IMG/VR virus record: IMGVR_UViG_3300012351_000008
Location: 15,962-79,961 of that record
DNA: 64,000 bases
DNA from: a virus
Strand: one strand, 5' to 3'
Program-made: the position numbers and the translations under genes
Shown here: positions 14,580 to 52,435 of the stretch, piece by piece
Layout of the letters: each line of letters opens with the position of its first letter
Position numbering within the stretch: the stretch's first letter is position 1
The notes under the pieces: model-generated
What the model saw: only the letters and a program-made list of their open reading frames with translations
What the model was told of the DNA's origin: nothing
The model's database searches: none

Positions 14580-14725
14580 AAAAAAACCACCTTGCGTTTT
14601 CGCTGGTGGCTCACGGGCTCGTCTGTTTGGACAGCCCGGTAGCATTCCAAAATACCGGGCCGTGGTCCGCTTGATAGCATCGTCGTAGCAAACAATAAAG
14701 TAGCGGACCCATGGGCAGTGTAGCA
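14580..14725 (-). promoter_or_regulatory. late leader: extended -10, two hairpins, tandem-GAGCC motif overlapping a terminator
   Basis: TGCTACACT (14717-14725); ACGAGCCCGTGAGCCACC (14605-14622); GCCACC/GGTGGT stem plus T-tract. Confidence 0.7.
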
Positions 14726-15008
14726 GATTGAGGGGAGCAAGGCAACCGAGCATGGGGGATGGTTGCCTTGCTGTAGCCGGTAGATGTGTAGTTGGGCGTT
14801 GTTGCCTCGAACATTATAGCAAATTACCGGCGCGTACACAACCGAAAACGGCGCGTCAGGATGAGCAACAGACGACCTTGCTGAGTTGTGACGACTGATT
14901 AGCTTACCGTTCAGAGATGGCTTGTCAGAATGATTGTAGCGAGAAAGTGGAGAGTGAGGGATGAGAGGGCAATTTTGAGAGAGTGCGAACTATTAGTGTG
15001 AAAACCTC

Positions 15009-15037
15009 TTGACAACAGTGTGTACACATTGTATGAT
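15009..15037 (+). promoter_or_regulatory. sigma70 promoter with a palindromic operator in the spacer
   Basis: TTGACA-17-TATGAT; spacer contains TGTGTACACA. Confidence 0.75.
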
Positions 15038-15078
15038 GTAGACATCAGATGAATGTGAAACAAAGTGAGGCAAGAAAT

Positions 15079-15477
15079 ATGGCAAACAGAAAACAGCGCA
15101 TTAATGTAATGTTAGAAGAGTCTACAGTCGAAGAACTGGAAAAACAGTATCCAGAGAAACAGCGCAGCGATTTCATTGAACAACAGGTTAGGAGGGGTCT
15201 GGGTATGCCAGAAGCAGAAGGGCAAAAAGGATTTGCTGTATACGAACGTAGCATTGATGATGGTTTCGGTTCTCAGATTGTCTATGTCAAAGATGGCCGG
15301 ATAGTGCATCAGTATCTTAGTGCCAGGCAAGGCCACTATACTGGTGATGGCAATCCTGAGTGGATAGGGCAAAAAGTCAACGTCTTGTATGGCAATGGCT
15401 TCAAAAAGCTGAGAAGTGCGGCAAGAATTCAAGAAATTGAGATGGAGTGGTTGCAAGAAGAGGTGCTTGAACCATGA
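15079..15477 (+). CDS. protein with N-terminal ribbon-helix-helix-like domain
   Basis: KQRINVMLEESTVEELEK...RSDFIEQQVRRGL. Confidence 0.6.
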   Translation: MANRKQRINVMLEESTVEELEKQYPEKQRSDFIEQQVRRGLGMPEAEGQKGFAVYERSIDDGFGSQIVYVKDGRIVHQYLSARQGHYTGDGNPEWIGQKVNVLYGNGFKKLRSAARIQEIEMEWLQEEVLEP

Positions 15478-15689
15478 GTAACGACGAATTGTTTCGTGAT
15501 GCTGAGTTCATAGCCTCAGAAGCTGAGTTGCACCAACGCAAGAACGAGCCGCTTAATACAGAATTGCGCTGCTACATTCAGCCGCACACGATGGAACGTC
15601 TGCGTGAGATGGTTGAGGAGCGAAAAACGAGTACTGATGTTGTTGTGAATATGGCGCTACGGGCGCTGTTGTACGATCAAGGATTTTGA
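15474..15689 (+). CDS. small RHH/CopG-like protein
   Basis: ATGA overlap; LRCYIQPHTMERLREMVEERKTSTDVVVNMALRALL. Confidence 0.55.
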   Translation: MSNDELFRDAEFIASEAELHQRKNEPLNTELRCYIQPHTMERLREMVEERKTSTDVVVNMALRALLYDQGF

Positions 15690-15722
15690 ACGCAGCCAAG
15701 CTGCAAAGAAAGGACAGAAACG

Positions 15723-16016
15723 ATGTCAGGTCAATGGAATAGTGAAGCACAGCGATACGAAGTATTCTCAACATTAGAGGGTGGCATGGTCCCCACTGGC
15801 AAGCCTATGGACTATCAGATGCAGCCAGGGGTTGATTATTGTGGTTATTGTAAACACGGTTTTGATGATCAGGGCAATTGTGTTTGCGATGGGCTTGGTG
15901 GAGGTCATACGCCTACTTGTAGTTACTGTCACTCCGCCTATGATGGCAAAGGCAACTGTAATTGTGATGGCTTCGGCAATGATCCTGAGACGGGCGAGCC
16001 ATTACCATACGCTTGA
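15723..16016 (+). CDS. Cys-rich protein with a duplicated CxxC...GNCxCDG motif
   Basis: CGYCKHGFDDQGNCVCDG and CSYCHSAYDGKGNCNCDG; AAGGA RBS. Confidence 0.6.
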   Translation: MSGQWNSEAQRYEVFSTLEGGMVPTGKPMDYQMQPGVDYCGYCKHGFDDQGNCVCDGLGGGHTPTCSYCHSAYDGKGNCNCDGFGNDPETGEPLPYA

Positions 16017-16073
16017 GCAACCACAATGCCCACGCTAGTCTACAAGCCGCTTCAGTAGTGAGAAGCGGCTCTT

Positions 16074-16694
16074 CTATTTCCCCTGCTCACTCTTCAGATA
16101 TCTCCTCGCCAGAACCTCTACCGTCACCACAAACGTGATCTTAATCACAATCAAGATTCCACCTGCCAACTCACCAAAGACAGTGATCGTGATTCTACTG
16201 CTGTACTCCTGCTGCAGTAGTTCATTGGCGACCTGAGAGATAGCCAGAAAATACGGTCGCTCTTGCATATGGATAATCTGCGTCTGGACGATATCAATCG
16301 TTTGAGGATGCGCAAGAATAGCCCTGACCGCAGCGTCGATGCTCACGTAGTTGGTGGTAGAAGAGATTAGTAGTGTTTGTGCGGTGCCAGATAGGTTGCT
16401 GTTCTGTAGATTGGCCTGATCACTCTCCCATGTCGGCAACATGTTCTGTAGTTCGCTGATTGCCTGAGCATTGTTGTCTGCTGGCCCGTATTGCAGGATA
16501 AGTGCGTCTTTGGCGATACGCTGCGAGATGGACTGCTGTAGCGTAGCGTAGTGGAGGATAGCATCGTTGTTGGAGATGGTGAGTGGAATAGCTTGAAATA
16601 TCATGATGGCACCAACAGCCACGAATGCGAGCGTTTCGATGATGCGGACGAACGCCAGGAAACCTTGAGGTGTACTGAGTAATTTGATCATCAC
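16074..16694 (-). CDS. two-TM membrane protein with PilJ/NarX-like extracytoplasmic helical domain
   Basis: TM helices at both ends; LQQSISQRIAKDAL resembles the QRMLSQRIAK box. Confidence 0.55.
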   Translation of the reverse strand: MMIKLLSTPQGFLAFVRIIETLAFVAVGAIMIFQAIPLTISNNDAILHYATLQQSISQRIAKDALILQYGPADNNAQAISELQNMLPTWESDQANLQNSNLSGTAQTLLISSTTNYVSIDAAVRAILAHPQTIDIVQTQIIHMQERPYFLAISQVANELLQQEYSSRITITVFGELAGGILIVIKITFVVTVEVLARRYLKSEQGK

Positions 16695-16735
16695 ATATTG
16701 TTACCTTCCTTGGTTATTTAATGCAATACGGTTAT

Positions 16736-17110
16736 CTAGTGCAACACGTGGGCCGCGTAGGCTCCGATAATACTCAAAAGAATCGCTATGAAAATACTGA
16801 CGATGCCAGCCAGGACACGTATTTGCATCTGGTTTTGATTTTCCTTCAGTGCCGAGTCACGTTTTTGTGCCTCAACTTCTGAATCGGCTAGTTTTGTGTT
16901 GAGATCGGTCAGTTGTGATTTGGCGCTACTGACCTCGCGCTCGATCCGCTCAACCGTTTCACGAATGCTTCGAAGCTGCAGCTCGTTCTCTTTGGCGGGC
17001 ACATATTGTTGTAACTGGTTCTGTAACTGCTGCACCATTTTTTCGAGTGCCTCAATCCGAAAAGTTAGTGTCGATTGGTCCTGCTGCATCCCTTGTTCCT
17101 CATGTAACAT
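16736..17110 (-). CDS. coiled-coil protein with C-terminal TM (holin/XhlA-like)
   Basis: Heptad-rich body, hydrophobic C-terminus, position between tail and lysis genes. Confidence 0.55.
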   Translation of the reverse strand: MLHEEQGMQQDQSTLTFRIEALEKMVQQLQNQLQQYVPAKENELQLRSIRETVERIEREVSSAKSQLTDLNTKLADSEVEAQKRDSALKENQNQMQIRVLAGIVSIFIAILLSIIGAYAAHVLH

Positions 17111-17165
17111 GCATTATATGATTAAAGTAAACAATCATATAATGCATGTATTGTACATATTATAG

Positions 17166-20100
17166 CTAGAACCACACTCGTGCATAATTAGTAAGATTAG
17201 GGCCTGTTGTGGCGTCCACGCTGTATAAATAAATTATTCCGTTTTGTCCCTGGTATCCAGTGGTTGTAACTTTCACAATTGGCACCTGAGAATTAAAGAT
17301 AGACATTATCTCTGGTAACATGAGTCCCACTGTCGTTCCCGGCGCAAGTCCAGCATACAACGTCGTCCCCACCAACTCAATCGTGCTATTGCTACCGTAC
17401 CTCGTGAGCAGGCCATTTCCAAACGCTGTTGCCTGATCGGTGGTCATACCACTTGCTGTACTATTGAGCGCAGTTTGGATTTGCGCAACGATGCCACTAT
17501 TGCCTTCAAGCGCGGCCTGTGCTGCCTGACTGCCGCTATTCTCGAGGTTGACATTGACGCTAGAAGTGCCGACGTATGTGAAAGAGAGAATAGTGCCAGC
17601 AGGAAGTTTAGGAAGCGTGCTATCGTACGAGATGCTCGATGAGAGCGGCTGCCAATAGAACTGCCGGTTGTTGTCTACACCCTGATACCCGACCGTCGCC
17701 CCCTGTCCATTTACGAGGATGGTCGGCGCGCTATAGACAGGATACCCAAGCGTCCATGATGTAGTGCTTCCATCAGCCACCTTGATCTCAGTTGGTGGGC
17801 TAACGAGTCCAGTTACGCCAGTGATGACCTGTTCATTGCGGAAAATATCAGCCGAAGAGAGGACCGTCACTTGTGGTAGGTAAAGGAGATACCCGCTGCT
17901 ATTCGCCGGGTCCGCAACGCTTTGCACTGGGAATGCCCCTGGACGTGCTAAACGCGGTCCAAAGTGCAGTTGCCGCCACTTGTCCACGTACCAGTAATAG
18001 TCTCCGCTCATCTGGACAAGATTGTCCATTTCAGATGAGTAGTACGCAGCAAACGGTGTAGTGATCGGATGAAGCTGTGAAACTGTCGCCCCGGTGCCGA
18101 TAGATGGGCCTCTCACGCAGGCCACGAGAGTAAAGAGTTGAGGCATCATGGATGGGTCACTTGTCGTCATGGTGACTTTTGTGTATAAAACTTGCCCGGT
18201 TAAATTGGAGCCTAAAGGCTGTATCCATAACTGGTAGTAGCGTGATGTACCGCCGTCATTGCGCAATCCGCACTCGCCGGAACCGAGCGCCGACGTGTCC
18301 AGGTATGACTGTTTGCAGGTGCCGTCCCAATAGACGCTGATCAGCCCTCCTTGCATTGTCACTCTGATTCTGTGGAATGTGCCCCTGGTAAACGTGATAG
18401 TGGAAGCGCTTCCAATTAATGACCGTGTGCCACTGGCTACTTTGTAGAGTCGTAGTTGATTGGTAAAACCGCCACTAGAGCTAGCATCGTAGACACCTAG
18501 CTCATAGTAGTTCGTTGTGCTTACTTCGCGCCATACTAGTCCACCTGCGTCAGATTCGTCCATATCACAGAGCAGATCCACATCGCTCGTAGAGATAGAG
18601 TTGTTAACGTAGAGCCCACCAGAACCACCTGAGAGCGTTATACGGCTATTGGTTGTGTCATAGGTAACAGTTGCAGCACTTCCACCGCTCTTGCTGATGT
18701 TGGTATAGCTGGCGCTGGTGTTGCTATTGAATAAGTCCTGCGTGCTGGCTGGCTGATTCGCCCAGTATGTCAGCGCCTCACCGGCTCCGTTGTTCCCTAC
18801 CGTATGGTAAGTGGAGAGGTCTTGTGTGGTCTGTACAGTCAGGCTGGTGTTTGTGGGAATGTTGGCATTCCACGCCACATTGTTGCTGGAAACATAACCA
18901 ACTGGCGAGAGTGAGAGAGCAGGACTGATGCGCGTACCGGAGACAGTGCCATAATTCCCACAGACACGAGCATACAGACCCATAATAATCGGCGTTGAGA
19001 TGGGCGGCTTTGAACTAGAAAGGATTATCTGGAAAACAAGATTGACACTTGAAACAGTAGTTCCTCTTGATAATTGGGGGATTTCAGCGCCGTTTGTACA
19101 TTGTAGCCAGGATGATCCATTATCAATAGAGGCAAGTACAATCGCAGCAGTTTCTGGATGGCCTGTACCATCCAAATCCGACCAGCACACTTGATTGTAT
19201 CCGCATGTTCCCAATGATGCTAACGAGGTAGATGGGGAAGTCCAGATGCCAGATGTTGACGCGAGTATTGAAAAGTTCTCAATACTCGCTGTAAACGAGT
19301 TTGTCGTATTCGTAGCGCAGCGAAAACCCACTTGTCCGGCAGATAGGTAGGTATTATCTAAAACGTCTATATCAGGTGTGCTTGAATGATTAAAGTAAAC
19401 GGTATGTCTGTTTCCTTTCACCACAAGCTTTATGTGATAGTACGTATTCGCGGCTATCGTTTTCGTTACTTGGGCTATGTTGGTAAACGATCCAACGGTA
19501 CTATTATTCCAGCTATTATCTGAAAAGCCGACGACTAGCGTGTTCGCCTGAGAGATTGCTACGTAGTAGGCCATATGATAGTTGGCATTTCCCCAACCAG
19601 TTTGCCGGTAAATAATGCCTGTATCACAATAGAAGCTTGATGTACTCAGTTTTATATCGGCCTCGATAGTTCCATCCAGAATATATCCTGCAAAATCAAA
19701 ACGAGACTGACACCACGTTCCTAGAGGGTTAGTACCAGAGTTTGCACCAGGAGTCATTGAATAGACTCCTCCTGAAGCTGCTTGTGTTCCAGAGTTGGCA
19801 AATCCGGCAAAAAATGACTGGAGCGAAAGCGAGGGAGTACCGCTCCATGATGAGGCAATAGCATTGGCAGTTCCAGTAAGCGTTAAATCTCCATTTGAAT
19901 TTGGTCCGATGAGTAGCTGAGTACCCGTATTCCACTCTGTGCTTGTACCGTATGTCGTAACAATATCACTCACTGTCTGAGCTGCGGCACTATTAATCGT
20001 GATCTGCACTTGTTCGAGAGATGGGATAGCAGAAGGATCAGAGCCACAAGCAAATTGTTCGCGAAGATAGAAAGATAACCCACTCACATTGCCACCAGCG

Positions 20101-23003
20101 GGCAAACCAGGAAGGGCTTGAGAGTTTTGGCATGTGAGCCATGTTGTGTTGTCGTAGGAGGCAAATAATACCATGCCTGGACTTATCCCACCACCGCTTG
20201 ATGTGGTTGCTGCTGTTGTACCCGGTGGATAAGTTACTTGAGGCGCGCCTGATGTCGGGAGACTGGCAGTCCATGTAATATTACTATTCTGTACAAGCCC
20301 TACCCCTGATAGAGAGTGTGCCGGTGAAATCCTATAACTTCCTAATGGATCGTAGACCTGTACTACAGATGTGGTAATAGAGTTAGAAACGTAGCCTCCA
20401 AATACTGATTGCAGTAGAGGTGGATTGAGTTGTGGAGCCGTGGCGCTTACGCCAAAAAATGGACTACCACTCTGACTCCCCAGATAACAGTTTTTCCCAT
20501 ACACGGTGTAGGTTCCAGAACTCGAACCTGCCAGGAATATATCAACAGCTGTGATGGTTTTTCCATTTAGTCCAGTAAGCGTGATATTACGTGTGTACCA
20601 TGTATCTTTGGCATGTCCGCTCAAATCTTGCAGACAATCTACGCTGACACCATTTTGATCATAAATGGCAACTGAATTGTTCAAGCAAAGCGTTCCGATG
20701 TGATCGGACAGAAATGACTTATCGCTAAATTCGATATCCATTCCGGCTAAGAATTCAGGACTCGTTGAAGAAATCCAGAAGTCATAATTAAAGGTATCGT
20801 TCGTCCCAACGGTCATACTTCCAGACCAGATCCTTATGTAAGCAAGGTTTGCAAAATATTCTCCACTTGTTGCGGTGCCTGTAAAGGGAGAAGAAGCACC
20901 GGATGTGCCCTCTTGTGAAATTTGATTTTGCGCAGTTGCAACCGGGGAAAGGAGAGCTTCAAGTTTCAAAGCACTCTGAGTTGTTGGCGTGAGCATGTTG
21001 TTGCTAGCAGTCATATTCGTCAATGTGCCACTACTAAAGTCACTGGTAACACTCTCAGTCAGCATGAATTGTGTACCGGCACGCACCAACTCTAAATCCC
21101 CTGTATTCGATGTGATTGGTGGGGTCGCCGTATTGGGTGCATAGACAAACGGTGTAGTGGTTGTAGTCGCTACGGTGCCGCTTAACGTACCCTGTCCAAA
21201 TGTGGCCGGTGTATAATCGGACTCTAACGCGAAGGCCCCTGTAATGCCCTCCTGGCTAAGTGTCTGTTGCGCAAAGTCGCACACCATATCGCCAGCAGTC
21301 CAGTTGAGGTAGTTCGTCTCGTTGGCCCGTTTATCAACATCATAGTGATGGTCCATTATCGTTAGTTGATGCTCAAGTTGTGCTGCACCACCAGCAGCCG
21401 GTTTGCTCACTTTGTCAGAATTGACGTAGCCGGTGTAGAGCAACCCTTGATTTGAGTCTGAGAACATGACAGGCATACCGCGCTGATAGGACAGCGTACC
21501 AGCAGTATCCTCGACGGTAAGTGTCAGGATCGATCTTTGGTCGAGCGCATCGGCAAGTGTGAATGACTGATCGCGCACGGGAGCCCCACTGCCACTCTGG
21601 AAACTAGATGCCCCAACGAGATTTGAAAGACCTGCAGGCGTACTAATCATCGTAGGCGCAATGGTGGTGCCATCGTTATATACGCCTTGGCTTGCACTGT
21701 TAGAAACATAGATAGTGAAAACGTTGCTTGCCCAGGCCGTCGTGGTATTAAGTACAAACGCATCCATATACAAAGTGTCACCTGCGACAAATTGCCAGAG
21801 CGAAGCCAAAACTGATGGAAGTGTATAGGTTGTTTTCGTAGTTGAGAATGTTTGACTGGTAATTGAAGAGATGGCAATTGGATAATATGTACCATCCATT
21901 GTACGCCGGGACCAACGAGCATAGACCGCGCCGCCGCTCATACTTGTTCCTGATTTGGACAGCGTGAAAATACCCGACCAGGAACCGGCAACGATAGTAT
22001 TACCTGCCAATGAGATAGACCAGCCCTTGCCGGTTGGCGCTGGAAGGGCAGACGTTGATCCTGGTGTTCCTCCCTGGCTTGTCAATTCCACATAAGCATT
22101 CGTGCCCGAGCTCGGAGCAGTGACGGTGAAACTTGTTTCTGTCCCACCTGAAACCTGAGACATCTGATCAGATTGAGTTAGTCCACCTATGGCGGAAGCC
22201 ACATTCGATGCGTAAAATACAGCACTTGTTTGCAAGGATGCGGACGCCGGGATAGCGCGCGTGCTTGTGAATATAAGAGAGGCTGATGCGGGAATGGTTC
22301 GTATACTTGTCGGCGCTAGAAGTGATGCATTAGCAGGAATGGTTCTTATTGGTGTGCTCACGAGAGCAATAGCGGCAGGAATGGTTCTGGTAGAGGTGGT
22401 AGTACTGATATAACCAGGGGTTGTTATTGAAACGCTTGTATAACCAAGCGTGGAACTACTTGACATGTGGACGCGTACATTGCCAGTTGTGCTATTTGTG
22501 GTGATATTGAGAGTTACATCTGTATAGGTTTTATCTCCGGTGGCAAAGGTATTACTTGCAGAAGCCCCGCTAGCCGTAACCGTAAACTGTGTATAGGCTG
22601 TGCTTATAATTGTTTGACTGGTGGCGATGCCCTCCGCAATGAGTGTGTAGGTGCCCCCGCTTGAACGCTGATAGGCTCGACAGTGGATATCACAGGTAAA
22701 GGTGCCTGTGGTAGTTGTCTCAAGTTCAACAGTCCAGGTCCAAGTGCCACTTTGAAAGTGGTTTCCCTCGATAAGGGTCGTATCCTCTAGCCACCCATGA
22801 TTAGAGGGTGAGGGTTGCGAACCTGCGCCCGTTTGTGCTGATGCGTCTCCTTGCGACCATAACTCTACCCACCCGGTTGTACCAGAAGTGAGGTTAGTAT
22901 TCAGATTGACTGCCGTTGCGCCCGTTGATGGATTTTCTAATAGTTTATTTGCTGTACTCAAACTGGAAGCAACGTTGTTTGGGTAGAGTGTAAGAGCCGT
23001 CAT
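17166..23003 (-). CDS. large tail tip/host-recognition protein
   Basis: 1945 aa, Ser/Thr/Gly-rich beta structure, lectin-like segments, TRTIPAxASL repeats; downstream of the tape measure gene. Confidence 0.75.
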   Translation of the reverse strand: MTALTLYPNNVASSLSTANKLLENPSTGATAVNLNTNLTSGTTGWVELWSQGDASAQTGAGSQPSPSNHGWLEDTTLIEGNHFQSGTWTWTVELETTTTGTFTCDIHCRAYQRSSGGTYTLIAEGIATSQTIISTAYTQFTVTASGASASNTFATGDKTYTDVTLNITTNSTTGNVRVHMSSSSTLGYTSVSITTPGYISTTTSTRTIPAAIALVSTPIRTIPANASLLAPTSIRTIPASASLIFTSTRAIPASASLQTSAVFYASNVASAIGGLTQSDQMSQVSGGTETSFTVTAPSSGTNAYVELTSQGGTPGSTSALPAPTGKGWSISLAGNTIVAGSWSGIFTLSKSGTSMSGGAVYARWSRRTMDGTYYPIAISSITSQTFSTTKTTYTLPSVLASLWQFVAGDTLYMDAFVLNTTTAWASNVFTIYVSNSASQGVYNDGTTIAPTMISTPAGLSNLVGASSFQSGSGAPVRDQSFTLADALDQRSILTLTVEDTAGTLSYQRGMPVMFSDSNQGLLYTGYVNSDKVSKPAAGGAAQLEHQLTIMDHHYDVDKRANETNYLNWTAGDMVCDFAQQTLSQEGITGAFALESDYTPATFGQGTLSGTVATTTTTPFVYAPNTATPPITSNTGDLELVRAGTQFMLTESVTSDFSSGTLTNMTASNNMLTPTTQSALKLEALLSPVATAQNQISQEGTSGASSPFTGTATSGEYFANLAYIRIWSGSMTVGTNDTFNYDFWISSTSPEFLAGMDIEFSDKSFLSDHIGTLCLNNSVAIYDQNGVSVDCLQDLSGHAKDTWYTRNITLTGLNGKTITAVDIFLAGSSSGTYTVYGKNCYLGSQSGSPFFGVSATAPQLNPPLLQSVFGGYVSNSITTSVVQVYDPLGSYRISPAHSLSGVGLVQNSNITWTASLPTSGAPQVTYPPGTTAATTSSGGGISPGMVLFASYDNTTWLTCQNSQALPGLPAGGNVSGLSFYLREQFACGSDPSAIPSLEQVQITINSAAAQTVSDIVTTYGTSTEWNTGTQLLIGPNSNGDLTLTGTANAIASSWSGTPSLSLQSFFAGFANSGTQAASGGVYSMTPGANSGTNPLGTWCQSRFDFAGYILDGTIEADIKLSTSSFYCDTGIIYRQTGWGNANYHMAYYVAISQANTLVVGFSDNSWNNSTVGSFTNIAQVTKTIAANTYYHIKLVVKGNRHTVYFNHSSTPDIDVLDNTYLSAGQVGFRCATNTTNSFTASIENFSILASTSGIWTSPSTSLASLGTCGYNQVCWSDLDGTGHPETAAIVLASIDNGSSWLQCTNGAEIPQLSRGTTVSSVNLVFQIILSSSKPPISTPIIMGLYARVCGNYGTVSGTRISPALSLSPVGYVSSNNVAWNANIPTNTSLTVQTTQDLSTYHTVGNNGAGEALTYWANQPASTQDLFNSNTSASYTNISKSGGSAATVTYDTTNSRITLSGGSGGLYVNNSISTSDVDLLCDMDESDAGGLVWREVSTTNYYELGVYDASSSGGFTNQLRLYKVASGTRSLIGSASTITFTRGTFHRIRVTMQGGLISVYWDGTCKQSYLDTSALGSGECGLRNDGGTSRYYQLWIQPLGSNLTGQVLYTKVTMTTSDPSMMPQLFTLVACVRGPSIGTGATVSQLHPITTPFAAYYSSEMDNLVQMSGDYYWYVDKWRQLHFGPRLARPGAFPVQSVADPANSSGYLLYLPQVTVLSSADIFRNEQVITGVTGLVSPPTEIKVADGSTTSWTLGYPVYSAPTILVNGQGATVGYQGVDNNRQFYWQPLSSSISYDSTLPKLPAGTILSFTYVGTSSVNVNLENSGSQAAQAALEGNSGIVAQIQTALNSTASGMTTDQATAFGNGLLTRYGSNSTIELVGTTLYAGLAPGTTVGLMLPEIMSIFNSQVPIVKVTTTGYQGQNGIIYLYSVDATTGPNLTNYARVWF

Positions 23004-23014
23004 ACTTTTCCTGC

Positions 23015-23386
23015 CTAAACTGCCTGTAAATCATTCGTGCGGAATGTTTCGCCACTGTCAGATACAAATAAGTACACAGCCTCGTCACCATGTTTCCATC
23101 CGATACAGTGCGTTGTTTTCCCCTGCTGCATACTCTCATCATTTGGATTGATAATCACCGTTCGACGCCGAAAGAACACAGGTTCAGCACCTTCTGGAAT
23201 GGGTATGCGGTATTCCCTGTCATCGAATGGTTCCCACGTCATCAGGACAATCTCGGAAACAGATTTCTCATCGCGCTCTGCAAAACCACGACCATCGCGC
23301 CTGGTATCGTCAAACTCATCGGTGACAGAACCATCCCGGTAGATAATGCGCCATTGATATGCATCTTTTGTTTTGTTTTGTATCAT
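23015..23386 (-). CDS. hypothetical protein (tail region)
   Basis: AGGA RBS; 123-aa ORF. Confidence 0.65.
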   Translation of the reverse strand: MIQNKTKDAYQWRIIYRDGSVTDEFDDTRRDGRGFAERDEKSVSEIVLMTWEPFDDREYRIPIPEGAEPVFFRRRTVIINPNDESMQQGKTTHCIGWKHGDEAVYLFVSDSGETFRTNDLQAV

Positions 23387-23416
23387 GTCCTACTCAAATC
23401 AAACAATAATTGCAAA

Positions 23417-23485
23417 TAAAAAAGCCGATGGCTCTTGTGGCTCATCGGCTCGTTGAAATGTGTAAAACTAATCTCTATTATGGCA
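23417..23485 (-). promoter_or_regulatory. late leader: extended -10 plus tandem-GAGCC motif overlapping a terminator
   Basis: TGCCATAAT (23477-23485); ACGAGCCGATGAGCCACA (23436-23453); AGCCGATG/CATCGGCT stem plus T-tract. Confidence 0.75.
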
Positions 23486-23506
23486 TACAGAATCAATCCT
23501 TGGGTT

Positions 23507-24028: not shown

Positions 24029-24079
24029 ATTGTCGACCTTTCTTTGCTAATCTAGCATAATTAAACTCATGAAAATACT

Positions 24080-29445: not shown

Positions 29446-29519
29446 TAAAAACAAGCCATACCTCGAAATGTCAATTTTCGATCGGTATGGCCTCTAGGAC
29501 TCCGGGTGTGTATTCAGTT
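29446..29519 (-). terminator. terminator with variant GAGTCC/GAGGCC repeat and AACTGAATA box
   Basis: GCCATACC/GGTATGGC stem plus T-tract, downstream of the zinc-ribbon gene. Confidence 0.6.
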
Positions 29520-29533: not shown

Positions 29534-29746
29534 TTATCTCCGGTCAGCGATATCTGACCACAAAATGTGATGTTCCATATGACAGCCGCGACACCAGCAC
29601 CATTGTCCACCTGATACACTCGCTAACTGTGTAAGACTTGCCGTGTCAATACGTGTGAGCAGCTTCTTTGTCTGCTTGCAAAAGATCGGTGTGCGTTCTA
29701 GTTGAGTGCTGGCTCCATTATACTGTATACTTGTGTTTGTTGCCAT
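29534..29746 (-). CDS. Com-like zinc-ribbon protein (putative RNA-binding regulator)
   Basis: IFCKQTKKLL...WCRGCHMEH resembles the Com pattern CxxCxKLL...CxxC, with the second Cys replaced. Confidence 0.5.
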   Translation of the reverse strand: MATNTSIQYNGASTQLERTPIFCKQTKKLLTRIDTASLTQLASVSGGQWCWCRGCHMEHHILWSDIADRR

Positions 29747-31491: not shown

Positions 31492-31564
31492 AAAAAAACG
31501 CCACAACCGTTGCAGGTGTGGCGTGATAGCTCGTAGACTTCCCTCTATTGCTCATAGTATAGCA
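31492..31564 (-). promoter_or_regulatory. late leader: extended -10 plus tandem motif overlapping a terminator
   Basis: TGCTATACT (31556-31564); ACGAGCTATCACGCCACA (31517-31534); ACGCCACA/TGTGGCGT stem plus T-tract. Confidence 0.75.
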
Positions 31565-38202: not shown

Positions 38203-38205
38203 AAT

Positions 38206-38415: not shown

Positions 38416-38464
38416 AAAACAAAAAACACCACAACTAGCGAACTAGTGTGGCGCAATGGCTCGT
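38416..38464 (-). promoter_or_regulatory. tandem motif overlapping a terminator
   Basis: ACGAGCCATTGCGCCACA (38447-38464); stem capped by CTAG-TTCG-CTAG; T-tract. Confidence 0.75.
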
Positions 38465-42561: not shown

Positions 42562-42570
42562 TTTCCTTTA

Positions 42571-43905: not shown

Positions 43906-43949
43906 AACGTACTCCTATCTCACTGTATCTGAATGATACACGTAATACA

Positions 43950-45707: not shown

Positions 45708-45720
45708 TATTTATCCTTAT

Positions 45721-47379
45721 TTATTGTGTGCGGCCCCGCGTCGGCTGTGCGGCCAGTGCAGCAGCGGCCACTTGTTTTTCAATCGTGTCGAGTGCGCCCA
45801 TGCGTTGCAACCGGTTCAGCACGTCAAGCGTTGTTTCCTGCTGTGGTTGCGATAGTTGTGATGGGCGTGGGTCGGTAGCAAGCGTTTTATCCACTGGACG
45901 AGCGCCGTTGAGAATCGGGCCTCCGCTTGCAGGCTGCCTGGCTATCACTTCCACCTGACCTTTTACTTCCGCCAACGCGGAACGTACTTCGTCGAGGCTG
46001 GATTGAGTTGGGACAGTCTCAAGCCGGGTCACAATCGTCTCAAGGCTCGTTTGAATGGGGGAGAAATCTATCTCAGGAGTATGTGAACGGGCAAAGGTGC
46101 CAGCTATGGCATGCATCCTGGTGATTGGCGTGTGTAATTCTTGAGTGATGCGCGTAAGCAGGACTTCAGCAATACGATCAGCCATCTTGCCTGCATCCTG
46201 ATCAGGGTCTAGTGTCTTATCAGCACCGGGCAGGTCCACGTCATTATCGTTGTCGGGGTCCATAGCGTTGCGCATTGCAATACAATCAGGGCATCCACAC
46301 GTTTTCATAAGTTGCATCGCGCTTTGTAGGGCACTATCGCGAGCACCATGTAAGGCTGATTGTGTGTCAGAAGAGAGACGTGCACCCGCACGCTCTACCT
46401 CTGGCTCTTTTGGTGTTGCGATGACAGCAGGCTCAACTGGTGGTGGTGTCTCGGGCTCAGTCACGTCGATAAGATCAGTCAGACCATCGGCGCGACAAAT
46501 GGAAAGGCCGTGTCCATCAGGATTGCTTGCATTATCCACAACTGAGAGTTCAGCCAGCTCATAGGAGGTCAGGTAAGGATAGGTTTGCCCGTTCCTCTCG
46601 ATACTCTCCCACGTGTAGGGCTTGCCAGCGCCAACACTCAGTCCTGATAGTACGCCCTCCTGAATCTTTGTCCAGGTGTCAGGAGCACCTTTAGAGACAC
46701 GCAACCTGACAATGACTTGTTTTTGCTCATCATCAAACTGGACACCAACGCCTTTACCTACAGCCTTCCTGTCGTGCATCTCGCGTACATTGGCAGTGCG
46801 CTCAATCCACTTCTGAAAAGCTTTCTTTGAGGCTTCGTAGGAAAATATCGTGTTAAAACTGTCTACGGCCTCGGAGGTTGCAATGCCCTCCACTTCCCAC
46901 TTCTGATCGTCAATGCGCGTGATCGGGACATAGAGCATGGGGCACTCTGGCATAACGGCGCGTGTGGTATCATCTTTGCTGGTATCAGGAGTATCAGTCA
47001 TTGATTCATGATTGTCGGTGGATTCTACTGTCCGGCTACCATCATCTTTTTTGCCTGTTTCCCAACTATCCGGCAACTTCCATCCGTTCGCTTTTGCTTT
47101 ACCTCGGATACATGCTCGAACAGCATCAGGATTATCTGCGTGTCCTGCTAAACTTGCAGCGTTATCAACGTCTTTCTGATTTCTCACCGGAAATGAGCGA
47201 TGTGGACCACAAAACGCTGATGCTGGAATAGCATCTCTTTCCTTCTGTGGAATGTATCGCTCAATACCTTCTTCATTCTCAGGCCATACGGCTACACGCT
47301 CAACCTCTGGCGTTGCGGTAACGGGCTCAATAGGTGGTGCTACTGTCTGCTGTTCTGTATCGGTGTCAATTTGTGCCAT
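45721..47379 (-). CDS. prohead protease/scaffold (HK97 family)
   Basis: VEGIATSEAVD...VREMH...GVLSGLSVG...ELSVVDNASNP; GAGGT RBS at ATG 47379. Confidence 0.85.
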   Translation of the reverse strand: MAQIDTDTEQQTVAPPIEPVTATPEVERVAVWPENEEGIERYIPQKERDAIPASAFCGPHRSFPVRNQKDVDNAASLAGHADNPDAVRACIRGKAKANGWKLPDSWETGKKDDGSRTVESTDNHESMTDTPDTSKDDTTRAVMPECPMLYVPITRIDDQKWEVEGIATSEAVDSFNTIFSYEASKKAFQKWIERTANVREMHDRKAVGKGVGVQFDDEQKQVIVRLRVSKGAPDTWTKIQEGVLSGLSVGAGKPYTWESIERNGQTYPYLTSYELAELSVVDNASNPDGHGLSICRADGLTDLIDVTEPETPPPVEPAVIATPKEPEVERAGARLSSDTQSALHGARDSALQSAMQLMKTCGCPDCIAMRNAMDPDNDNDVDLPGADKTLDPDQDAGKMADRIAEVLLTRITQELHTPITRMHAIAGTFARSHTPEIDFSPIQTSLETIVTRLETVPTQSSLDEVRSALAEVKGQVEVIARQPASGGPILNGARPVDKTLATDPRPSQLSQPQQETTLDVLNRLQRMGALDTIEKQVAAAALAAQPTRGRTQ

Positions 47380-47430
47380 ACATACCTCAGTTAGCGGTGT
47401 GGCACAACTGCCGCCGCCGCGAAAATGTGC

Positions 47431-47526
47431 AATAAAAAACACCATCGATTGTGGCTCGATGGCGCGTGATTTGTGTTTGTTTAGTTCTTAGCCCTGATGA
47501 GGGTTATCATTGCTTGCAGTATAGCA
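47431..47526 (-). promoter_or_regulatory. late leader: extended -10 plus tandem motif overlapping a terminator
   Basis: TGCTATACT (47518-47526); ACGCGCCATCGAGCCACA (47450-47467); CCATCGA/TCGATGG stem plus T-tract. Confidence 0.75.
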
Positions 47527-47596
47527 TGGGCTAGCAAGATATGCTAGCGATGTATGAACAAGAGACTTGTAGCAACTTCCAATCAATCATAGTGGC

Positions 47597-47830
47597 TCAT
47601 GGCCTTCCTCTCATCACTCCCTTCATACGCTGAAACACCATCATGAACTGTTTATACACCACGTGGTCCTTGTGATCTTCCCGAATGAGCCAGTACACCA
47701 ACAACGCCATGCCCATCGGTGAAGTGGTCAGGCCATGACAGAGCGTGCCGATGGTCGTCTCAATTAATACTGGTGTGCAATCCATCGAATGTGCAATATC
47801 CTGGTAGATGATCTGTGTCTCTTCTCTCAT
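47597..47830 (-). CDS. hypothetical protein
   Basis: ATGA overlap with the portal stop. Confidence 0.5.
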   Translation of the reverse strand: MREETQIIYQDIAHSMDCTPVLIETTIGTLCHGLTTSPMGMALLVYWLIREDHKDHVVYKQFMMVFQRMKGVMRGRP

Positions 47831-49800
47831 GAAGCAACTTCGTCAAGATTTCGCGCACGATTGAACACTTCACGTACCTGATCAGGCGTTGTACACTCGA
47901 CCAGTTCGTCACTAATCCGTCGATGAGTGTCTGGAGGTATCAATGTTGTGGTAAAGCCGCGTAGTGTACGACCCGCCTTCACATCATCTATTGCCCTGGT
48001 CCGCCATTTACGGTAATCGGGCGAGGCGTCATGTGTCGCAGAGCGGGAATCAATCGAGCTTCCTCCATTTGCATGATCATCTGTATCCTCATCTCTTTTA
48101 ACAGTTGCTCTTTCTTCTTGGGATCGCTCAATACTCGCTCCATCGTCTTGACTTGACGCTTCCGCTTGCTCTTGTTGTGAGAGTAGTTGAAGGAATTCGC
48201 TAACTGTGTAACGCTTTTCTGTCGTTTGCTTCGTTTTGCTTGCGTTTTGTGGCTTCTTCCCTGTTCCTGTCTGCTGCGCTTTACCTTGTTGTGTGCCAGT
48301 GCCATTGGTGCCCTGTTCCTCCTCATCTGTGCTGTCATCTGGTGATGGCTGTGTTGCTAACTGCAATCCTGCGAGTTGTGCCTGCTTATGCGCGGCTCGT
48401 ATTGTCGGGTCTGCGAGGTCCTCAAGGAATACTGGGCCTGTCTTCGTGAGAATGTATGGGCCCGTCTGTGGGATATCAGGAAAATGCATCTCGTGTGCAA
48501 CATCACTTGGTGAAATGACGCCCCTATCAATGAATCCACCATATGCAGCAGATAACGTTTGTAAATCTTCTACCTCTTCGTAGCCTGCAAAGCCAAATAT
48601 GAAGCGATCATCATGGAACTCATCACGTAAGATGTTCGTGCATATCATACCGTACATGACGGTAAGAGGGAAAAGTGTACGACGAAACAGCATATTCTGC
48701 TGGCCTTCGTCGGCTGATTTGTGGATGGTCTCGGTGAATGAGATGTCACCCATACCCAAGCCGTAGTCGGCAGCGAAGTAGTTAAGCAAGAACTTATCGA
48801 AGTCACACGTGAGTTGATATTGCTCTAACGGAGTATACTTCATCCCCGGCTGTGTGAACTTCATACGCATCTGCTGTTGTTGCGACCCGGCGATAAGCGC
48901 GTTCCACATTTGTTCGAATGCGTCGATCTGATCTGGTGTCCAGTTGGAAGCCTCGGGCACCTCCATGATTGCGAATGGCTGGTTGCCTTCCGTGAAATAG
49001 CTCAGGTCTTTCTTAGCCTTACGTAACGCCTGATTGACACGAATCATCACCCGCTCAACACGCGAGCGGCCATATGGTGTATTGGCCTGCGGTGACTCTC
49101 GGAAATAGATCATGTCTTTGGGAGAGTAGATTTCACCCGGTATCCCCCACGGGAACTGTTGATAGGCTACAATCGCGCCCCAATCATCGAGGAGTGGCTT
49201 GAGTGTATCTCCCTGGATGATAGGGAGCTTGAGGAGACGCCCGGCGCGATCACGTTGCTTGTAGATGTAGAGGGCATCAATTTGTGTTTGCTCTACCACC
49301 GCGATGCGCAGCCAGCTATGGAAGTCATTGATGCCGTCTGGACGCTCAAAGAACTTACTATAGGCTGTGACCTCTTTTTGATAGTCCTTGAGGTTTGCGC
49401 CACCTTCCTCCAGATCTGGACGTAATTGTATCTTGATAGTGAGTTTGGGGATGAGGTCAAGCCATACTTTTTCGCAGAGGGCAATGCCATCACAGAGCAT
49501 CGCCAGATTGCGAATTTGCTGGAAGGCCGGGACATCCTGGTTACCAAGCGTGCGGTCGACAGTGAACGTATTGTACCCTAATGGATACTGAAATAGCCTG
49601 GGCAATCCTTTTGGGTCTGCACCCGCCTGGGTATCCATAGGTGTACCCGGCGAGAACATGTTTGCGTCATTCGATACTTTGCCGGGGCGTCCCATCTGCG
49701 CAATGATAGCTTGTATTTGCGCAGGGGAGATCACATTGCCACCCGTTGGAATATTGGCACGTTCTATCATTGCTTGTTTGCGTCGGTTGCGTCGGCTCAT
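47827..49800 (-). CDS. portal protein
   Basis: Between terminase and protease; IYKQRDRAGRL...YGRSRVE...YFTEGNQP. Confidence 0.85.
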   Translation of the reverse strand: MSRRNRRKQAMIERANIPTGGNVISPAQIQAIIAQMGRPGKVSNDANMFSPGTPMDTQAGADPKGLPRLFQYPLGYNTFTVDRTLGNQDVPAFQQIRNLAMLCDGIALCEKVWLDLIPKLTIKIQLRPDLEEGGANLKDYQKEVTAYSKFFERPDGINDFHSWLRIAVVEQTQIDALYIYKQRDRAGRLLKLPIIQGDTLKPLLDDWGAIVAYQQFPWGIPGEIYSPKDMIYFRESPQANTPYGRSRVERVMIRVNQALRKAKKDLSYFTEGNQPFAIMEVPEASNWTPDQIDAFEQMWNALIAGSQQQQMRMKFTQPGMKYTPLEQYQLTCDFDKFLLNYFAADYGLGMGDISFTETIHKSADEGQQNMLFRRTLFPLTVMYGMICTNILRDEFHDDRFIFGFAGYEEVEDLQTLSAAYGGFIDRGVISPSDVAHEMHFPDIPQTGPYILTKTGPVFLEDLADPTIRAAHKQAQLAGLQLATQPSPDDSTDEEEQGTNGTGTQQGKAQQTGTGKKPQNASKTKQTTEKRYTVSEFLQLLSQQEQAEASSQDDGASIERSQEERATVKRDEDTDDHANGGSSIDSRSATHDASPDYRKWRTRAIDDVKAGRTLRGFTTTLIPPDTHRRISDELVECTTPDQVREVFNRARNLDEVAS

Positions 49801-50039
49801 ACCATTGTCCCCCTCATGACCTTCTCCCATATTTGCGCATCATGCAAATCATGCAACTCCCACATTGAGCAGATCGGAGTATACGCACGTTGATCAGATG
49901 GCACATTCGGCGTACAGCGGCAAAGCATCCCATCACGATAGGCGAAGTCCAAACCATACCACGGCGTGAAGATCGTTGCTGTGTTCGTGTAGTTGCGCAC
50001 ACAACCTGCCAGAATACGAACCTGATCATCGTCGCTCAT
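49797..50039 (-). CDS. hypothetical protein
   Basis: ATGA overlaps at both ends. Confidence 0.5.
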   Translation of the reverse strand: MSDDDQVRILAGCVRNYTNTATIFTPWYGLDFAYRDGMLCRCTPNVPSDQRAYTPICSMWELHDLHDAQIWEKVMRGTMV

Positions 50040-51418
50040 GCTGCTGCCCCCTTGATCTTTGCTAGTCGCTGCTTCATGGCGTCCAGGTGTTCCCCCGCAG
50101 TCATTTCATCCGGCAACATTAATTCAGTGAGCGCCCACACCAATGCATCAAGCCTATCTGGTGACTTCTGCCCTGTCAGCGGTTCCCACTGGCATTGTTG
50201 ATCCTCTAAGAGAGAAAACATACCAACATGATGTACATTGCCCTGTTCATAGAGGGAGGCAATAGGTTCAGCACGCGTATACTTTCCCCGGCTAGCCCAT
50301 ACTGCTTTGTAGGATATTTTGCTCTCATTGCCACCTCTGCTATCAGCAGCTCTTATATTTGCCTCCACCAATGCACCCCCATTATTCTTTTCACCTATGA
50401 TTCGATCTGCCTTGTATTTCTTATAAGCCGTGATCGCCTCAGTAGCCCAGGTAAGTGGCGATGCTTGCAGCGACTTATCATCTAACACATAGCCATGCCC
50501 ATTACTGGCAAGTCCTGCAACCACAATACCTGTCTCTGCGTTCTCGTCTGCTGCTTCTTCACTTTTATTTGATGATGGGTCCGCTACAGCAGGATCAACC
50601 GCCACCACAATACGTATGAGATGGGGATATTCAGTCACGCGATGTGCCTCAATCATTTCCTCACGTTTCCACAGTGCCCCTTGTGAGTCATCCAGTATTT
50701 CAGCAAATAATTCTTGTCTGCCTGTTCTCGTATTCGCGTAACGACGTTTGAACTGTTCAAGGGCTGCAGGTGCAAGGTTGGCTTCATTGTCAAATGTAGT
50801 GCCCCGTGTCACGTGAACATCAGGACGTTTGATAAGCTCTCTTAGGAATTTACTAGGCTTGGGAGTAGTCGAAATGATTGCGCGTGGCTTCTGTCCTAAT
50901 CGCAATCCGAACATTGCGTTGTCCCAAGTTTGCGATAAGTACTTCCACGCACATAATTCCTCGCACCAAAGTCGATGATGCTGGGGACCTCTTAAACGCT
51001 CGGGTTCTTCAGCGCTAAAAAGTTTATAACGCGTTCCATTTGTGAGCACCAATTCACCGAGCGAACGATTCCACGTTGCAACCTTATCAGGAGGCAAGAT
51101 ACGTAGCAATCCTGACTCACCCTCGATACACGTATCCCGCGCATCCTGATACGTCGGAGCAATGATGCCCATACGGCTATCTTTGTGTTTTAAGCCATAT
51201 GCCTTGAAATCTTCTGCGTCAGTTCTCGTTTTTCCTGCGCCACGTCCGGCCAGATAAATCCATACATTCCAGTCACCAGAGGGTGTCATTTGTTCAGGGC
51301 GTGCCCAATACTGCCAATCATAGGCAAGTGCATATATTTCTGCGTCACTAAGACTTGCAACGAATGCTTCTTGCTTCTGTTTGGGTAGGGAAGCGATCTG
51401 CTGAACAAATGTCGTCAT
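50036..51418 (-). CDS. terL: terminase large subunit
   Basis: WARPEQ...AGRGAGKTR...LRGPQHH...CEEL; nuclease VAVDPA...SPDRLDALVWA. Confidence 0.95.
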   Translation of the reverse strand: MTTFVQQIASLPKQKQEAFVASLSDAEIYALAYDWQYWARPEQMTPSGDWNVWIYLAGRGAGKTRTDAEDFKAYGLKHKDSRMGIIAPTYQDARDTCIEGESGLLRILPPDKVATWNRSLGELVLTNGTRYKLFSAEEPERLRGPQHHRLWCEELCAWKYLSQTWDNAMFGLRLGQKPRAIISTTPKPSKFLRELIKRPDVHVTRGTTFDNEANLAPAALEQFKRRYANTRTGRQELFAEILDDSQGALWKREEMIEAHRVTEYPHLIRIVVAVDPAVADPSSNKSEEAADENAETGIVVAGLASNGHGYVLDDKSLQASPLTWATEAITAYKKYKADRIIGEKNNGGALVEANIRAADSRGGNESKISYKAVWASRGKYTRAEPIASLYEQGNVHHVGMFSLLEDQQCQWEPLTGQKSPDRLDALVWALTELMLPDEMTAGEHLDAMKQRLAKIKGAAA

Positions 51419-51424
51419 GGAGTA

Positions 51425-51880
51425 TTAGTCCTCTTCTCCCTGTCTAAGCATTTGTAATTTTTGAAGTAGCAATTCTTTTGCGCCATTAATATCTATTGAA
51501 CCAGAATGCTCTATTTGTTGCTTATCCCGATATTCACTCATAAGCGATTTTGCATGGAAGATCAACAATGTATCCGAATATTTCCGTACTGTTCCCGCAA
51601 ACTTTGCCAACTGATAGACATCCTCATCCCAACCTTCAACGCCACGCCTATAAATTTCTGCTCTGATTGTGTCTTTCGCTTCCTCTTTTGCGAGATTAAA
51701 GGCAAAAGAGAAATCTTCATCTTTTTCTAGCCATTGATAGACCGCCTGACGACTCACACCAGCAGCACGCGCCGATAACATCACATTGGCATTCAAAGCA
51801 AACGATTCAAGGAAAATGGCTTTCTTATTACGTGGACGTTTTTCTGCCGTCAAGTTCTCGTCAATTCTCGGTCTACTCAT
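51425..51880 (-). CDS. terS: terminase small subunit
   Basis: HTH NVMLSARAAGVSRQAVYQW; RKYSDTLLIF; directly upstream of terL. Confidence 0.85.
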   Translation of the reverse strand: MSRPRIDENLTAEKRPRNKKAIFLESFALNANVMLSARAAGVSRQAVYQWLEKDEDFSFAFNLAKEEAKDTIRAEIYRRGVEGWDEDVYQLAKFAGTVRKYSDTLLIFHAKSLMSEYRDKQQIEHSGSIDINGAKELLLQKLQMLRQGEED

Positions 51881-51883
51881 TCC

Positions 51884-52099
51884 CTATTCACCATCCTCAC
51901 GTACTGACATCAGCGCCAACGCACCCGGTATCATCGTGTTGTGTATCAAGCAATATTGAATGCTGCCCAGTATCACATCGAAGCAAATACATGTTCTAGT
52001 AATGCGTGGAGGCAACAGACGACGCCAGATGCCACGTCTCAGATTACCCTGGTAGATTGGCGCATCGCACGCGAAACACTTACCGATTAACTCTGGCAT
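51884..52099 (-). CDS. hypothetical Cys-containing protein
   Basis: GAGGAG RBS. Confidence 0.5.
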   Translation of the reverse strand: MPELIGKCFACDAPIYQGNLRRGIWRRLLPPRITRTCICFDVILGSIQYCLIHNTMIPGALALMSVREDGE

Positions 52100-52111
52100 G
52101 GATACTCCTCT

Positions 52112-52345
52112 CTAATAGATACCATTTACTTTCACTGGTATCTCATCAATCATTTGTACATGGAATGAGCGGATATTCTCGTTATCGCGCATAGCACATT
52201 TCATTGCGTAAAGGTCGCCATAATACTCACCCTCTTTAGGAGAGAAGCCACGTACATAGACAGACCTATCAACGTGAATAAGCCCTTCAGCGAAATACTG
52301 TCTCTCATCATCGTTATCAATATAGAGGAGGAGGAACCGATACAT
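52112..52345 (-). CDS. hypothetical protein
   Basis: AAAGGT RBS; first gene after the 52.4 kb leader. Confidence 0.55.
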   Translation of the reverse strand: MYRFLLLYIDNDDERQYFAEGLIHVDRSVYVRGFSPKEGEYYGDLYAMKCAMRDNENIRSFHVQMIDEIPVKVNGIY

Positions 52346-52370
52346 AACTACCTTTCACTAGATTGCACGC

Positions 52371-52435
52371 AAAAAGCCGTTGGCAGGTGTGGCGCAACGG
52401 CTCGTGGGATATTCTTGTTTGATGGAAGTATAGCA
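52371..52435 (-). promoter_or_regulatory. late leader: extended -10 plus tandem motif overlapping a terminator
   Basis: TGCTATACT (52427-52435); ACGAGCCGTTGCGCCACA (52388-52405); AGCCGTTG/CAACGGCT stem plus T-tract. Confidence 0.75.

Follow-up and report, generated by a model that had tools for sequence, protein, structure and literature searches.

An 18-nt motif, hereafter the box, recurs six times on the minus (late) strand of the 64-kb stretch of phage DNA analysed here (the window, i.e. the last 64 kb of the 79,961-bp IMG/VR record IMGVR_UViG_3300012351_000008, with a CheckV completeness of about 80%), and each copy covers the 5′ arm of a predicted intrinsic terminator at the head of a late gene module. 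Comparison with related contigs indicates that the box is under purifying selection as a sequence, independently of the particular hairpin in which it takes part, and we regard as evenly balanced the proposition that it serves terminator-by-terminator antitermination via a small zinc protein, which would read the box in the nascent RNA.

The box has the consensus ACG(A/C)GC(C/T)-N3-(G/A)(A/C)GCCAC(A/C), which can also be summarised as (A)CGAGCC-N2-3-GAGCCAC(A). An earlier note made from the letters of this DNA had listed six copies, and upon re-reading the minus strand all six have the positions and sequences given there. Its names for the modules that follow them proved roughly right when judged by PHROGs/Pfam matches, which cover TerL, portal, protease, adaptor, tail-spike-like, tail terminator, Neck1, major tail, chaperone and amidase proteins. 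The copies are as follows, with scores from a position weight matrix (PWM) trained on foreign copies.

52388..52405, minus strand: copy 1, ACGAGCCGTTGCGCCACA, a pattern match scoring 21.2 bits, ahead of terS, TerL and the portal gene
47450..47467, minus strand: copy 2, ACGCGCCATCGAGCCACA, a pattern match scoring 21.7 bits, ahead of the protease and head genes
38447..38464, minus strand: copy 3, ACGAGCCATTGCGCCACA, a pattern match scoring 22.4 bits, ahead of the tail-spike-like module, whose protein has a tail-spike / pre-neck-appendage N-terminus
31517..31534, minus strand: copy 4, ACGAGCTATCACGCCACA, the most divergent at 12.2 bits, ahead of the neck/tail module (tail terminator, Neck1, major tail, chaperone and tape-measure genes)
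23436..23453, minus strand: copy 5, ACGAGCCGATGAGCCACA, 25.8 bits, ahead of the gene for a distal tail protein of 1945 amino acids (aa)
14605..14622, minus strand: copy 6, ACGAGCCCGTGAGCCACC, 25.1 bits, ahead of the amidase gene, with copies at the same position in contigs G001 and L179
29446..29506, minus strand: possible seventh, divergent copy, GGAGUCC-UA-GAGGCCA, just 5′ of the major tail gene

When one mismatch at most is allowed, the degenerate pattern has six matches in the window, every one of them on the minus strand; 0.15 would be expected by chance, and six was never attained in 100 shuffles. A search of the whole record returns the same six only (0 forward, 6 reverse). The earlier note had named, as an outcome that would speak against a regulatory element, a box equally frequent away from terminators or on the other strand; this is not so, since six of six copies lie on the late strand and on a terminator 5′ arm, and none elsewhere. 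The comparison with Rfam that it had proposed gave no match at any copy, at gathering or permissive thresholds, and no Rfam family resembles the box. There is no complementary copy of the box anywhere in the record either, which led us to reject an antisense RNA model. As for the divergent element at 29446–29506, the period of 8 nt is retained and the repeat again overlaps a terminator 5′ arm (−20.1 kcal/mol, z-score −3.3), and on these sequence features it is probably a seventh, degenerate copy of the tandem repeat.

Each of the six copies is associated with a G+C-rich hairpin of −15.0 to −16.5 kcal/mol (z-scores −2.8 to −6.0), which is followed, after 0–2 nt, by a tract of five to seven T (U on the transcribed strand), i.e. 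the layout of an intrinsic terminator is predicted at six of six, with the box on the 5′ arm as had been claimed. The hairpins come in two registers. At 52388, 47450 and 23436, the arm starts from box position 3, so that the first half-box and the spacer are paired and the second half-box sits in the loop, and at 38447, 31517 and 14605 it starts from position 11–12, which leaves the first half-box unpaired and the second paired; the three-and-three split reported previously is thus right, by the start positions of the 5′ arms. These terminators, and the strong ones that carry no box, are listed below.

52371..52403, minus strand: terminator 1, arm in the first half-box, T5, −15.5 kcal/mol, z-score −5.1
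47434..47465, minus strand: terminator 2, arm in the first half-box and spacer, T6, −15.4 kcal/mol, z-score −5.2
38421..38454, minus strand: terminator 3, arm in the second half-box GCGCCACA, T6, −15.5 kcal/mol
31492..31524, minus strand: terminator 4, arm in the second half-box, T7, −15.5 kcal/mol
23418..23451, minus strand: terminator 5, arm in the first half-box, T6, −16.5 kcal/mol, z-score −6.0
14580..14612, minus strand: terminator 6, arm in the second half-box, T7, −15.0 kcal/mol
56138..56184, minus strand: strong box-free terminator, −25.3 kcal/mol (56146), upstream bound of a conserved block of genes that precedes the late genes
13165..13214, minus strand: strong, long-stemmed box-free terminator, −26.7 kcal/mol (13172), 3′ of the lysis genes, at the end of the late unit

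Inside the late block, every hairpin of −14 kcal/mol or better from the terminator finder has a box. The box terminators, at about −15 kcal/mol, are much weaker than the strong box-free ones that bound the block (−25 to −27 kcal/mol); a third box-free terminator that bounds it, at 13405, has −16.1 kcal/mol. The distance from hairpin to next start codon is 25–100 nt, which, together with the T5–T7 that follow, argues for terminators rather than for structures masking a ribosome-binding site. From box to T-tract the distance is bimodal (16–18 or 25–26 nt). In about half of the elements the T-tract is directly followed by (A/G)TT(T)GCA(A/C)T (for example at window positions 23403–23417, 47420–47433 and 52356–52370), which is a palindromic ATTGCAAT in some relatives and may be a second conserved element or merely the distal region of the terminator. 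Other structures were seen upstream: a stable hairpin (GGCCCGGTA...TACCGGGC) plus CCAAACAG lies directly 5′ of copy 6 (window 14623–14670, minus strand) and is retained, in altered form, at L179:3085–3129, and there are small hairpins upstream of the copy-2 equivalents too (CCCTCATCAGGG; TTCTCTCGCAAGAGAA in G001, G002 and G006).

What sets the box apart from an ordinary stem sequence is its conservation. The phage of the window (G000) was compared with contigs G001, G002, G003, G006/L246, L179, L206, L138 and L223. A search of GenBank by DNA yielded no close phage relative, and for TerL the nearest sequence has about 43% identity. Judging by a tyrosine integrase and two HTH_3 proteins (window 4520–5479, plus strand, and L122:12236–13297), the phage is temperate, and a search for a related prophage via the family of the small protein P0007 (see below) in 185,579 species genomes found none. 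Scanning IMG/VR for the exact box returned 74 stretches, with a terminator after the box only in those from a handful of contigs. G001 (103 kb) is collinear with the phage of the window, at about 35–66% protein identity in shared genes, and has six copies (two of them with a 2-nt spacer), five on the late strand and one on the opposite strand, ahead of a lysis module that is inverted there, which indicates that box orientation follows transcription. L179, from the metagenome scan, represents a third lineage and has kept the copy ahead of the amidase gene, though amidase identity is down to 35%; a fourth lineage with the element is L246/G006, and L206, L138 and L223 carry it too.

All 20 distinct elements read, exactly or nearly, GAGCC-(N2-3)-GAGCC. 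Among them 14 spacers occur, with 3′ arms to match, and the 5′ arm falls in the first half-box in 16 and in the second in four. The register can even differ at one position: that of the pre-lysis copy is the same in G000 and L179 and the other one in G001. When a PWM is built from the 12 copies outside G000, five window copies rank first (21–26 bits), the next-best genomic match (17 bits) is on the other strand and has no T-tract, and the sixth window copy (12.2 bits) is the sole other high match with a T-tract. It is because the box is kept across lineages, is ranked first by a matrix trained on foreign copies and persists through changes of register that we conclude from these comparisons that it is selected as a sequence. 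The motif search across relatives that the earlier note had suggested therefore bears out its statement that the motif rather than the hairpin is conserved: relatives keep the box, at matching positions in several lineages, while hairpin, spacer and pairing register change.

Promoters were recognised upstream of most copies, as follows.

52427..52435, minus strand: extended −10 TGCTATACT, 21 nt 5′ of copy 1, without a −35 box
47518..47526, minus strand: extended −10 TGCTATACT, 50 nt 5′ of copy 2
31556..31564, minus strand: extended −10 TGCTATACT, 21 nt 5′ of copy 4
23477..23485, minus strand: extended −10 TGCCATAAT, 23 nt 5′ of copy 5
14717..14725, minus strand: extended −10 TGCTACACT, about 95 nt 5′ of copy 6, a much looser association

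That five copies lie 3′ of an extended −10 is thus confirmed for copies 1, 2, 4, 5 and 6, loosely (~95 nt) for the last, which has an additional TGCTATAAT at 14813–14821; none was recognised at copy 3 (38447), and in G001 the copy at G001:42741 is likewise without promoter. All the late extended −10 promoters are devoid of a −35 box; the early-region promoters of the same phages have TTGACA and the same extended −10. Across all lineages the distance from −10 to box is 6, 7, 7, 10, 12, 21, 21, 23, 50, ~95 or ~115 nt. At the shortest distances (6–7 nt) the predicted start is the first box base, and the start never falls inside the box. Since the distance is never below 6 nt, the whole box would always be in the RNA, as an RNA site would require. 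In G001 (L095:2770–2845, minus strand), a tRNA-Ile lies between the TGCTATACT promoter and the equivalent of copy 2 with its terminator, so that a short terminated leader would deliver this tRNA constitutively.

Candidates for a protein that reads the box, a regulator to which the earlier note had given no name, were sought next to it. Between the strong terminator and copy 1 lies a block of seven genes (window 52453–55758, minus strand), with products of 80, 104, 373 (a GH42-like TIM barrel), 103, 180 (DUF1003), 119 and 95 aa, which is syntenic in G001, G002, G003 and L246 and whose content is odd for an operon that precedes the late genes. Two of the following small proteins are encoded there.

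52453..52740, minus strand: P0001, 95 aa, best candidate reader, with a Cys/His pattern of zinc ligands, its gene ending 47 nt before copy 1
52737..53096, minus strand: P0002, 119 aa, Cys/His-rich, secondary candidate from the same conserved block, 87% identical in L246
51884..52099, minus strand: P0007, 71 aa, a CxxC...CxC zinc ribbon, secondary candidate, just 3′ of attenuator 1
29534..29746, minus strand: P0003, 70-aa Cys-rich open reading frame (ORF), directly 5′ of the divergent seventh copy and absent from G001

P0001, P0002 and P0007 are all small and Cys-rich, flank copy 1 and are conserved in relatives. The gene of the P0001 family ends 32–47 nt 5′ of a box in four lineages. Among close relatives the invariant residues of P0001 are H16, C35-R-R-H38 (the CRRH box), C45 and W54-R55 (the WRE box); in the wider family, which is unannotated and forms 22 clusters at 50% identity, C35 is the only invariant residue among the Cys/His ligands. 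Its AlphaFold2 model has three strands, a helix and a long C-terminal helix (predicted local distance difference test, pLDDT, 72.6). P0007 has about 20 homologues and an invariant Arg-rich loop. In G003 only a decayed remnant of the box, GGAGCCGTTGCCGCC, is found 3′ of the P0001 homologue (L101 16404–16460), with no terminator, which suggests that the gate was lost in that lineage.

A further lead comes from L108, an unrelated gut Firmicutes phage-like contig (L108:4671–4910, a contig of an Acutalibacteraceae metagenome-assembled genome), where a 60-aa zinc-ribbon ORF, CPEC...CRCKRC, has its end 5 nt upstream of an exact ACGAGCC-ATT-GAGCCACA box; in this box the second half is the 5′ arm of a −23.6 kcal/mol terminator. 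A search of the 185,579 species genomes for the exact box with a T-tract gave 14 matches, which is around chance level, and the true terminator layout was present only in L108. The alignment of the P0001 profile with this ORF spans the entire zinc domain (hhalign E 0.0017, probability 16%), and the L108 match and the conserved gene position both point, if weakly and on sequence grounds, to P0001 as the reader. P0003 has a short, weak local similarity to the Com protein of phage Mu (7/21 identities, E 0.014 in a single comparison), but was rejected as a common reader because it is missing from G001, which has six boxes, and would be possible only if replaced there. We also rejected a sub-threshold PF14205 match (Cys_rich_KTR; Tn916 orf6) at window 61365–61433 (minus strand), which is in a frame overlapping a 68-aa membrane-protein ORF and is probably spurious. 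Tn916 canT is a 452-nt cis-acting RNA (PMC11658703), unrelated to the box.

How might such a system work? Host polymerase of the sigma-70 type would start at the extended −10 promoters that lack a −35 box, or arrive from the upstream module, and would stop at an intrinsic terminator of moderate strength, with one half-box as its 5′ arm. Before the 3′ arm is transcribed, a small phage zinc protein would bind both GAGCC half-sites as single-stranded RNA, which would prevent the hairpin and let polymerase read into the next module; the much stronger box-free terminators at both ends would stay closed. The reader would be made from the conserved block 5′ of copy 1, with P0001 as the best candidate. 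This would amount to the hairpin-melting logic of Mu Com/mom moved to terminators and repeated at six or seven gates. In Mu, the Com zinc finger selects, by systematic evolution of ligands by exponential enrichment (SELEX), the site NGAGNNCC(N)2-3GAGNNCCNN, with CC(N)2-3GAG as the minimal bound element, and its binding to the native site GAAUGCCUGCGAGCAUCCC (GCC-UGC-GAGC) melts an adjacent hairpin (PMC6483171).

Several properties of the box favour a site in RNA: (i) in every case, and in either register, it lies on a terminator 5′ arm, (ii) its half-sites are spaced by 2 or 3 nt, (iii) its distance from the −10 is variable and never below 6 nt, (iv) its bimodal distance from the T-tract argues against a fixed geometry between protein and polymerase and (v) there are no copies in the early/immunity region. 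The interpretation put forward in the earlier note – host-type promoters that fire and terminate early until a phage RNA-binding protein occupies the repeat and blocks the hairpin – is hence partly supported, in that the box is sequence-selected, strand-specific, located at the terminators of the late block and mostly 3′ of an extended −10. From this arrangement we infer that the hairpins terminate, that a protein binds, which protein it is and when it acts. A number of points weigh against zinc-protein antitermination. All results are computational, and the support for it is sequence-derived only. None of P0001, P0002 and P0007 has a family, PDB sequence or fold match: Pfam had none for 19 members of the P0001 family, the ESM Atlas gave no usable matches for P0001 and P0002, and the AlphaFold2 models of P0007 (pLDDT 74) and P0001 matched no PDB fold at E≤0.001, the weak rows being only PUR-repeat, Lsm and zinc-ribbon ribosomal proteins. 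The similarity of P0001 to the L108 protein is weak, at the probability of 16% given above; a six-frame search of G000, G001, G002, G003 and G006 with PF10122 (Com) found nothing at E≤10, and the P0001 and P0007 profiles reach a probability of about 1% against Com. The box has a GAG-to-CC spacing of 0 nt versus 2 nt in the SELEX core, G003 has kept its P0001 homologue and lost the attenuator after it, and a DNA site would equally explain why the box is conserved whether or not it pairs in RNA.

This last point is the starting place for a DNA-level reading, in which the box is a duplex-bound direct repeat of two 8-bp half-sites, used by a factor resembling Q21 for loading onto paused polymerase or as an orientation-dependent roadblock for a repressor akin to that of the L5 stoperators. 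L5 stoperators are asymmetric, lie between genes and are aligned with transcription. In the Q21 binding element, two 8-bp subsites are arranged as a direct repeat (10.1101/651190). Nevertheless, we consider it decidedly unlikely, since the half-sites follow each other at 7 or 8 bp, the T-tract lies at either of two distances, the −10 is anywhere from 6 to >100 nt away (with some copies promoterless), no −10-like pause element is found 3′ of the box, no copy occurs in the immunity/early region where repressor operators would be expected, and nothing about binding to DNA would require every copy to coincide with a terminator 5′ arm. Scans of 47 ORFs against Pfam/PHROGs, which included the seven genes 5′ of copy 1, found no Q (three Pfam families), N, CAT/PRD or ANTAR protein, and that no Q-family protein was among them also speaks against this reading. 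From the same 47 ORFs, a set that left a few mid-size and most small ORFs outside, no polymerase or sigma gene emerged, and we rejected the idea that a phage-encoded RNA polymerase uses the box as its promoter. Unlikely as well is a processive mechanism similar to N/nut, where a phage factor, alone or together with host Nus proteins, would load at the box in the RNA and be passed on to polymerase, which would then ignore that terminator and later ones; the six copies would be reloading points along a transcription unit of ~40 kb. The order promoter, RNA site, terminator does resemble PL-nutL and PR-nutR. The terminator at 29446–29506 inside module 4 bears only a degenerate box, and the operon-end terminators are long-stemmed and very stable, as one report describes for those that resist processive antitermination (PMC10325885). 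However, each copy extends over part of its own terminator, the 5′ arm, in one of two registers, which a loading site does not need; moreover there is neither a conserved boxB-like hairpin nor a boxA-like sequence, and the ORF scans recognised no N-like or Nus-recruiting protein.

The elements could alternatively be sibling small RNAs of ~35–75 nt that share an 18-nt 5′ seed and have their own terminators, acting as regulators in trans or as protein sponges, with late gating incidental. A predicted start at the first box base (in G001, L246 and G001:81970) and the layout of seed plus terminator would suit this, and the terminated PR′-tR′ leader of Shiga toxin (Stx) phages is itself reported to be a regulatory small RNA (PMC7547250). 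We find it quite improbable because of the promoterless copies (38447 and G001:42741), the location of copies exactly at the heads of late modules in positions that are conserved between lineages, and the lack of a complementary target for the box in the genome; besides, polymerase has to get past any terminator on its way to essential genes in any case. It is very improbable, finally, that the arrangement has no regulatory meaning, i.e. that leaky terminators descend from one duplicated cassette in which the box is a passenger or an element of terminator efficiency. The six are all alike in length and energy, and additional bases common to copies 1 and 4 (CGCCACACCTGC) hint at duplication, but the copies show no relation in their flanks, loops or 3′ arms, and yet at least 15 of 18 box positions persist, and the box is kept, with its register even switched, at matching positions in genomes whose proteins are 35–66% identical. 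Type A hairpins, in addition, have awkward 10–12-nt loops that house the second half-box.

For late-gene activation in tailed phages outside the lambdoid, T4, T7 and P2 paradigms, the box offers a concrete 18-nt cis-element with six natural variants, two hairpin registers and a short list of candidate readers. If antitermination by a zinc protein is true, this would (i) be a passive, site-specific RNA-binding antiterminator new to phage biology, (ii) extend the Com/mom principle from translation to transcription and (iii) provide a compact, orthogonal terminator switch for synthetic biology. It is possible, if somewhat short of an even chance, that the box and a small zinc protein constitute a portable late switch, with a reader of the Com type as antiterminator, common to phages of unrelated hosts (this clade and L108). 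The kinds of component, a protein site that overlaps a terminator and an RNA site of the Com type, are known, and our literature search found no description of such a combination in phages. In a more practical vein, the box could mark late operons when uncultured phage genomes are annotated.

Which known systems, then, does this one resemble? Bacteria have site-specific RNA-binding antiterminators such as BglG/SacY/LicT, which recognise the ribonucleic antiterminator (RAT), the ANTAR protein EutV, and HutP. The likeness is that the site for the protein overlaps the 5′ part of an intrinsic terminator and that binding excludes the terminator, and in the eut locus there are several terminators, each with its own site. 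EutV acts at several of them, which is distributed site-specific antitermination; the claim in the earlier note that the logic here differs from that of a single-site Q or nut is fair as a description, but distributed antitermination as such is already known in bacteria. Where these systems differ is in their sites (RAT, dual hexaloops or NAG repeats) and in their folds (CAT/PRD, ANTAR and HutP), none of which was found here. There is no conserved alternative antiterminator hairpin of the RAT or dual-hexaloop kind, and a pairing partner upstream is precluded in several relatives, where the RNA starts at the first box base. The literature that we searched holds no phage example of a site-specific RNA-binding antiterminator of the BglG/ANTAR/HutP kind.

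Among phages, the lambdoid Q/PR′/tR′/6S RNA system likewise has a constitutive promoter, an immediate terminator and then the late genes, and Q, like the regulator candidate here, is encoded directly upstream. However, Q binds promoter DNA, relies on a sigma-dependent pause and acts processively from one site, whereas the conserved site here is transcribed, lies at variable distance from the promoter, sits on each terminator and is repeated; no −10-like hexamer follows the box as a pause element would, and two window copies have no nearby promoter. Lambda N/nut and HK022 put also rely on sites in nascent RNA just 3′ of promoters, through which polymerase passes terminators, but boxB and put fold into conserved hairpins and are separate from the terminators on which they act, and the box has no conserved structure of its own. 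The stoperators of mycobacteriophage L5 are many, short, asymmetric, intergenic and all aligned with transcription; unlike the box copies, which are all within the late block and each on a terminator arm, they are DNA sites for the repressor, occur at the early promoter too and are not bound to terminators.

The nearest likeness in the recognised sequence is Mu Com. The native site GCC-UGC-GAGC was read in Mu DNA, and the box has the CC(N)2-3GAG core within a bipartite GAG...CC repeat, with the same tolerance of 2–3 nt in the spacer and two half-sites in each box, and is adjoined by small Cys-rich genes. The differences are that no Pfam Com protein is detectable here and no protein matches the zinc-ribbon profile, that the hairpin hides neither a ribosome-binding site nor a start codon but is a predicted intrinsic terminator, where that of Mu is a translation-inhibition structure, and that there are six or seven sites here instead of one.

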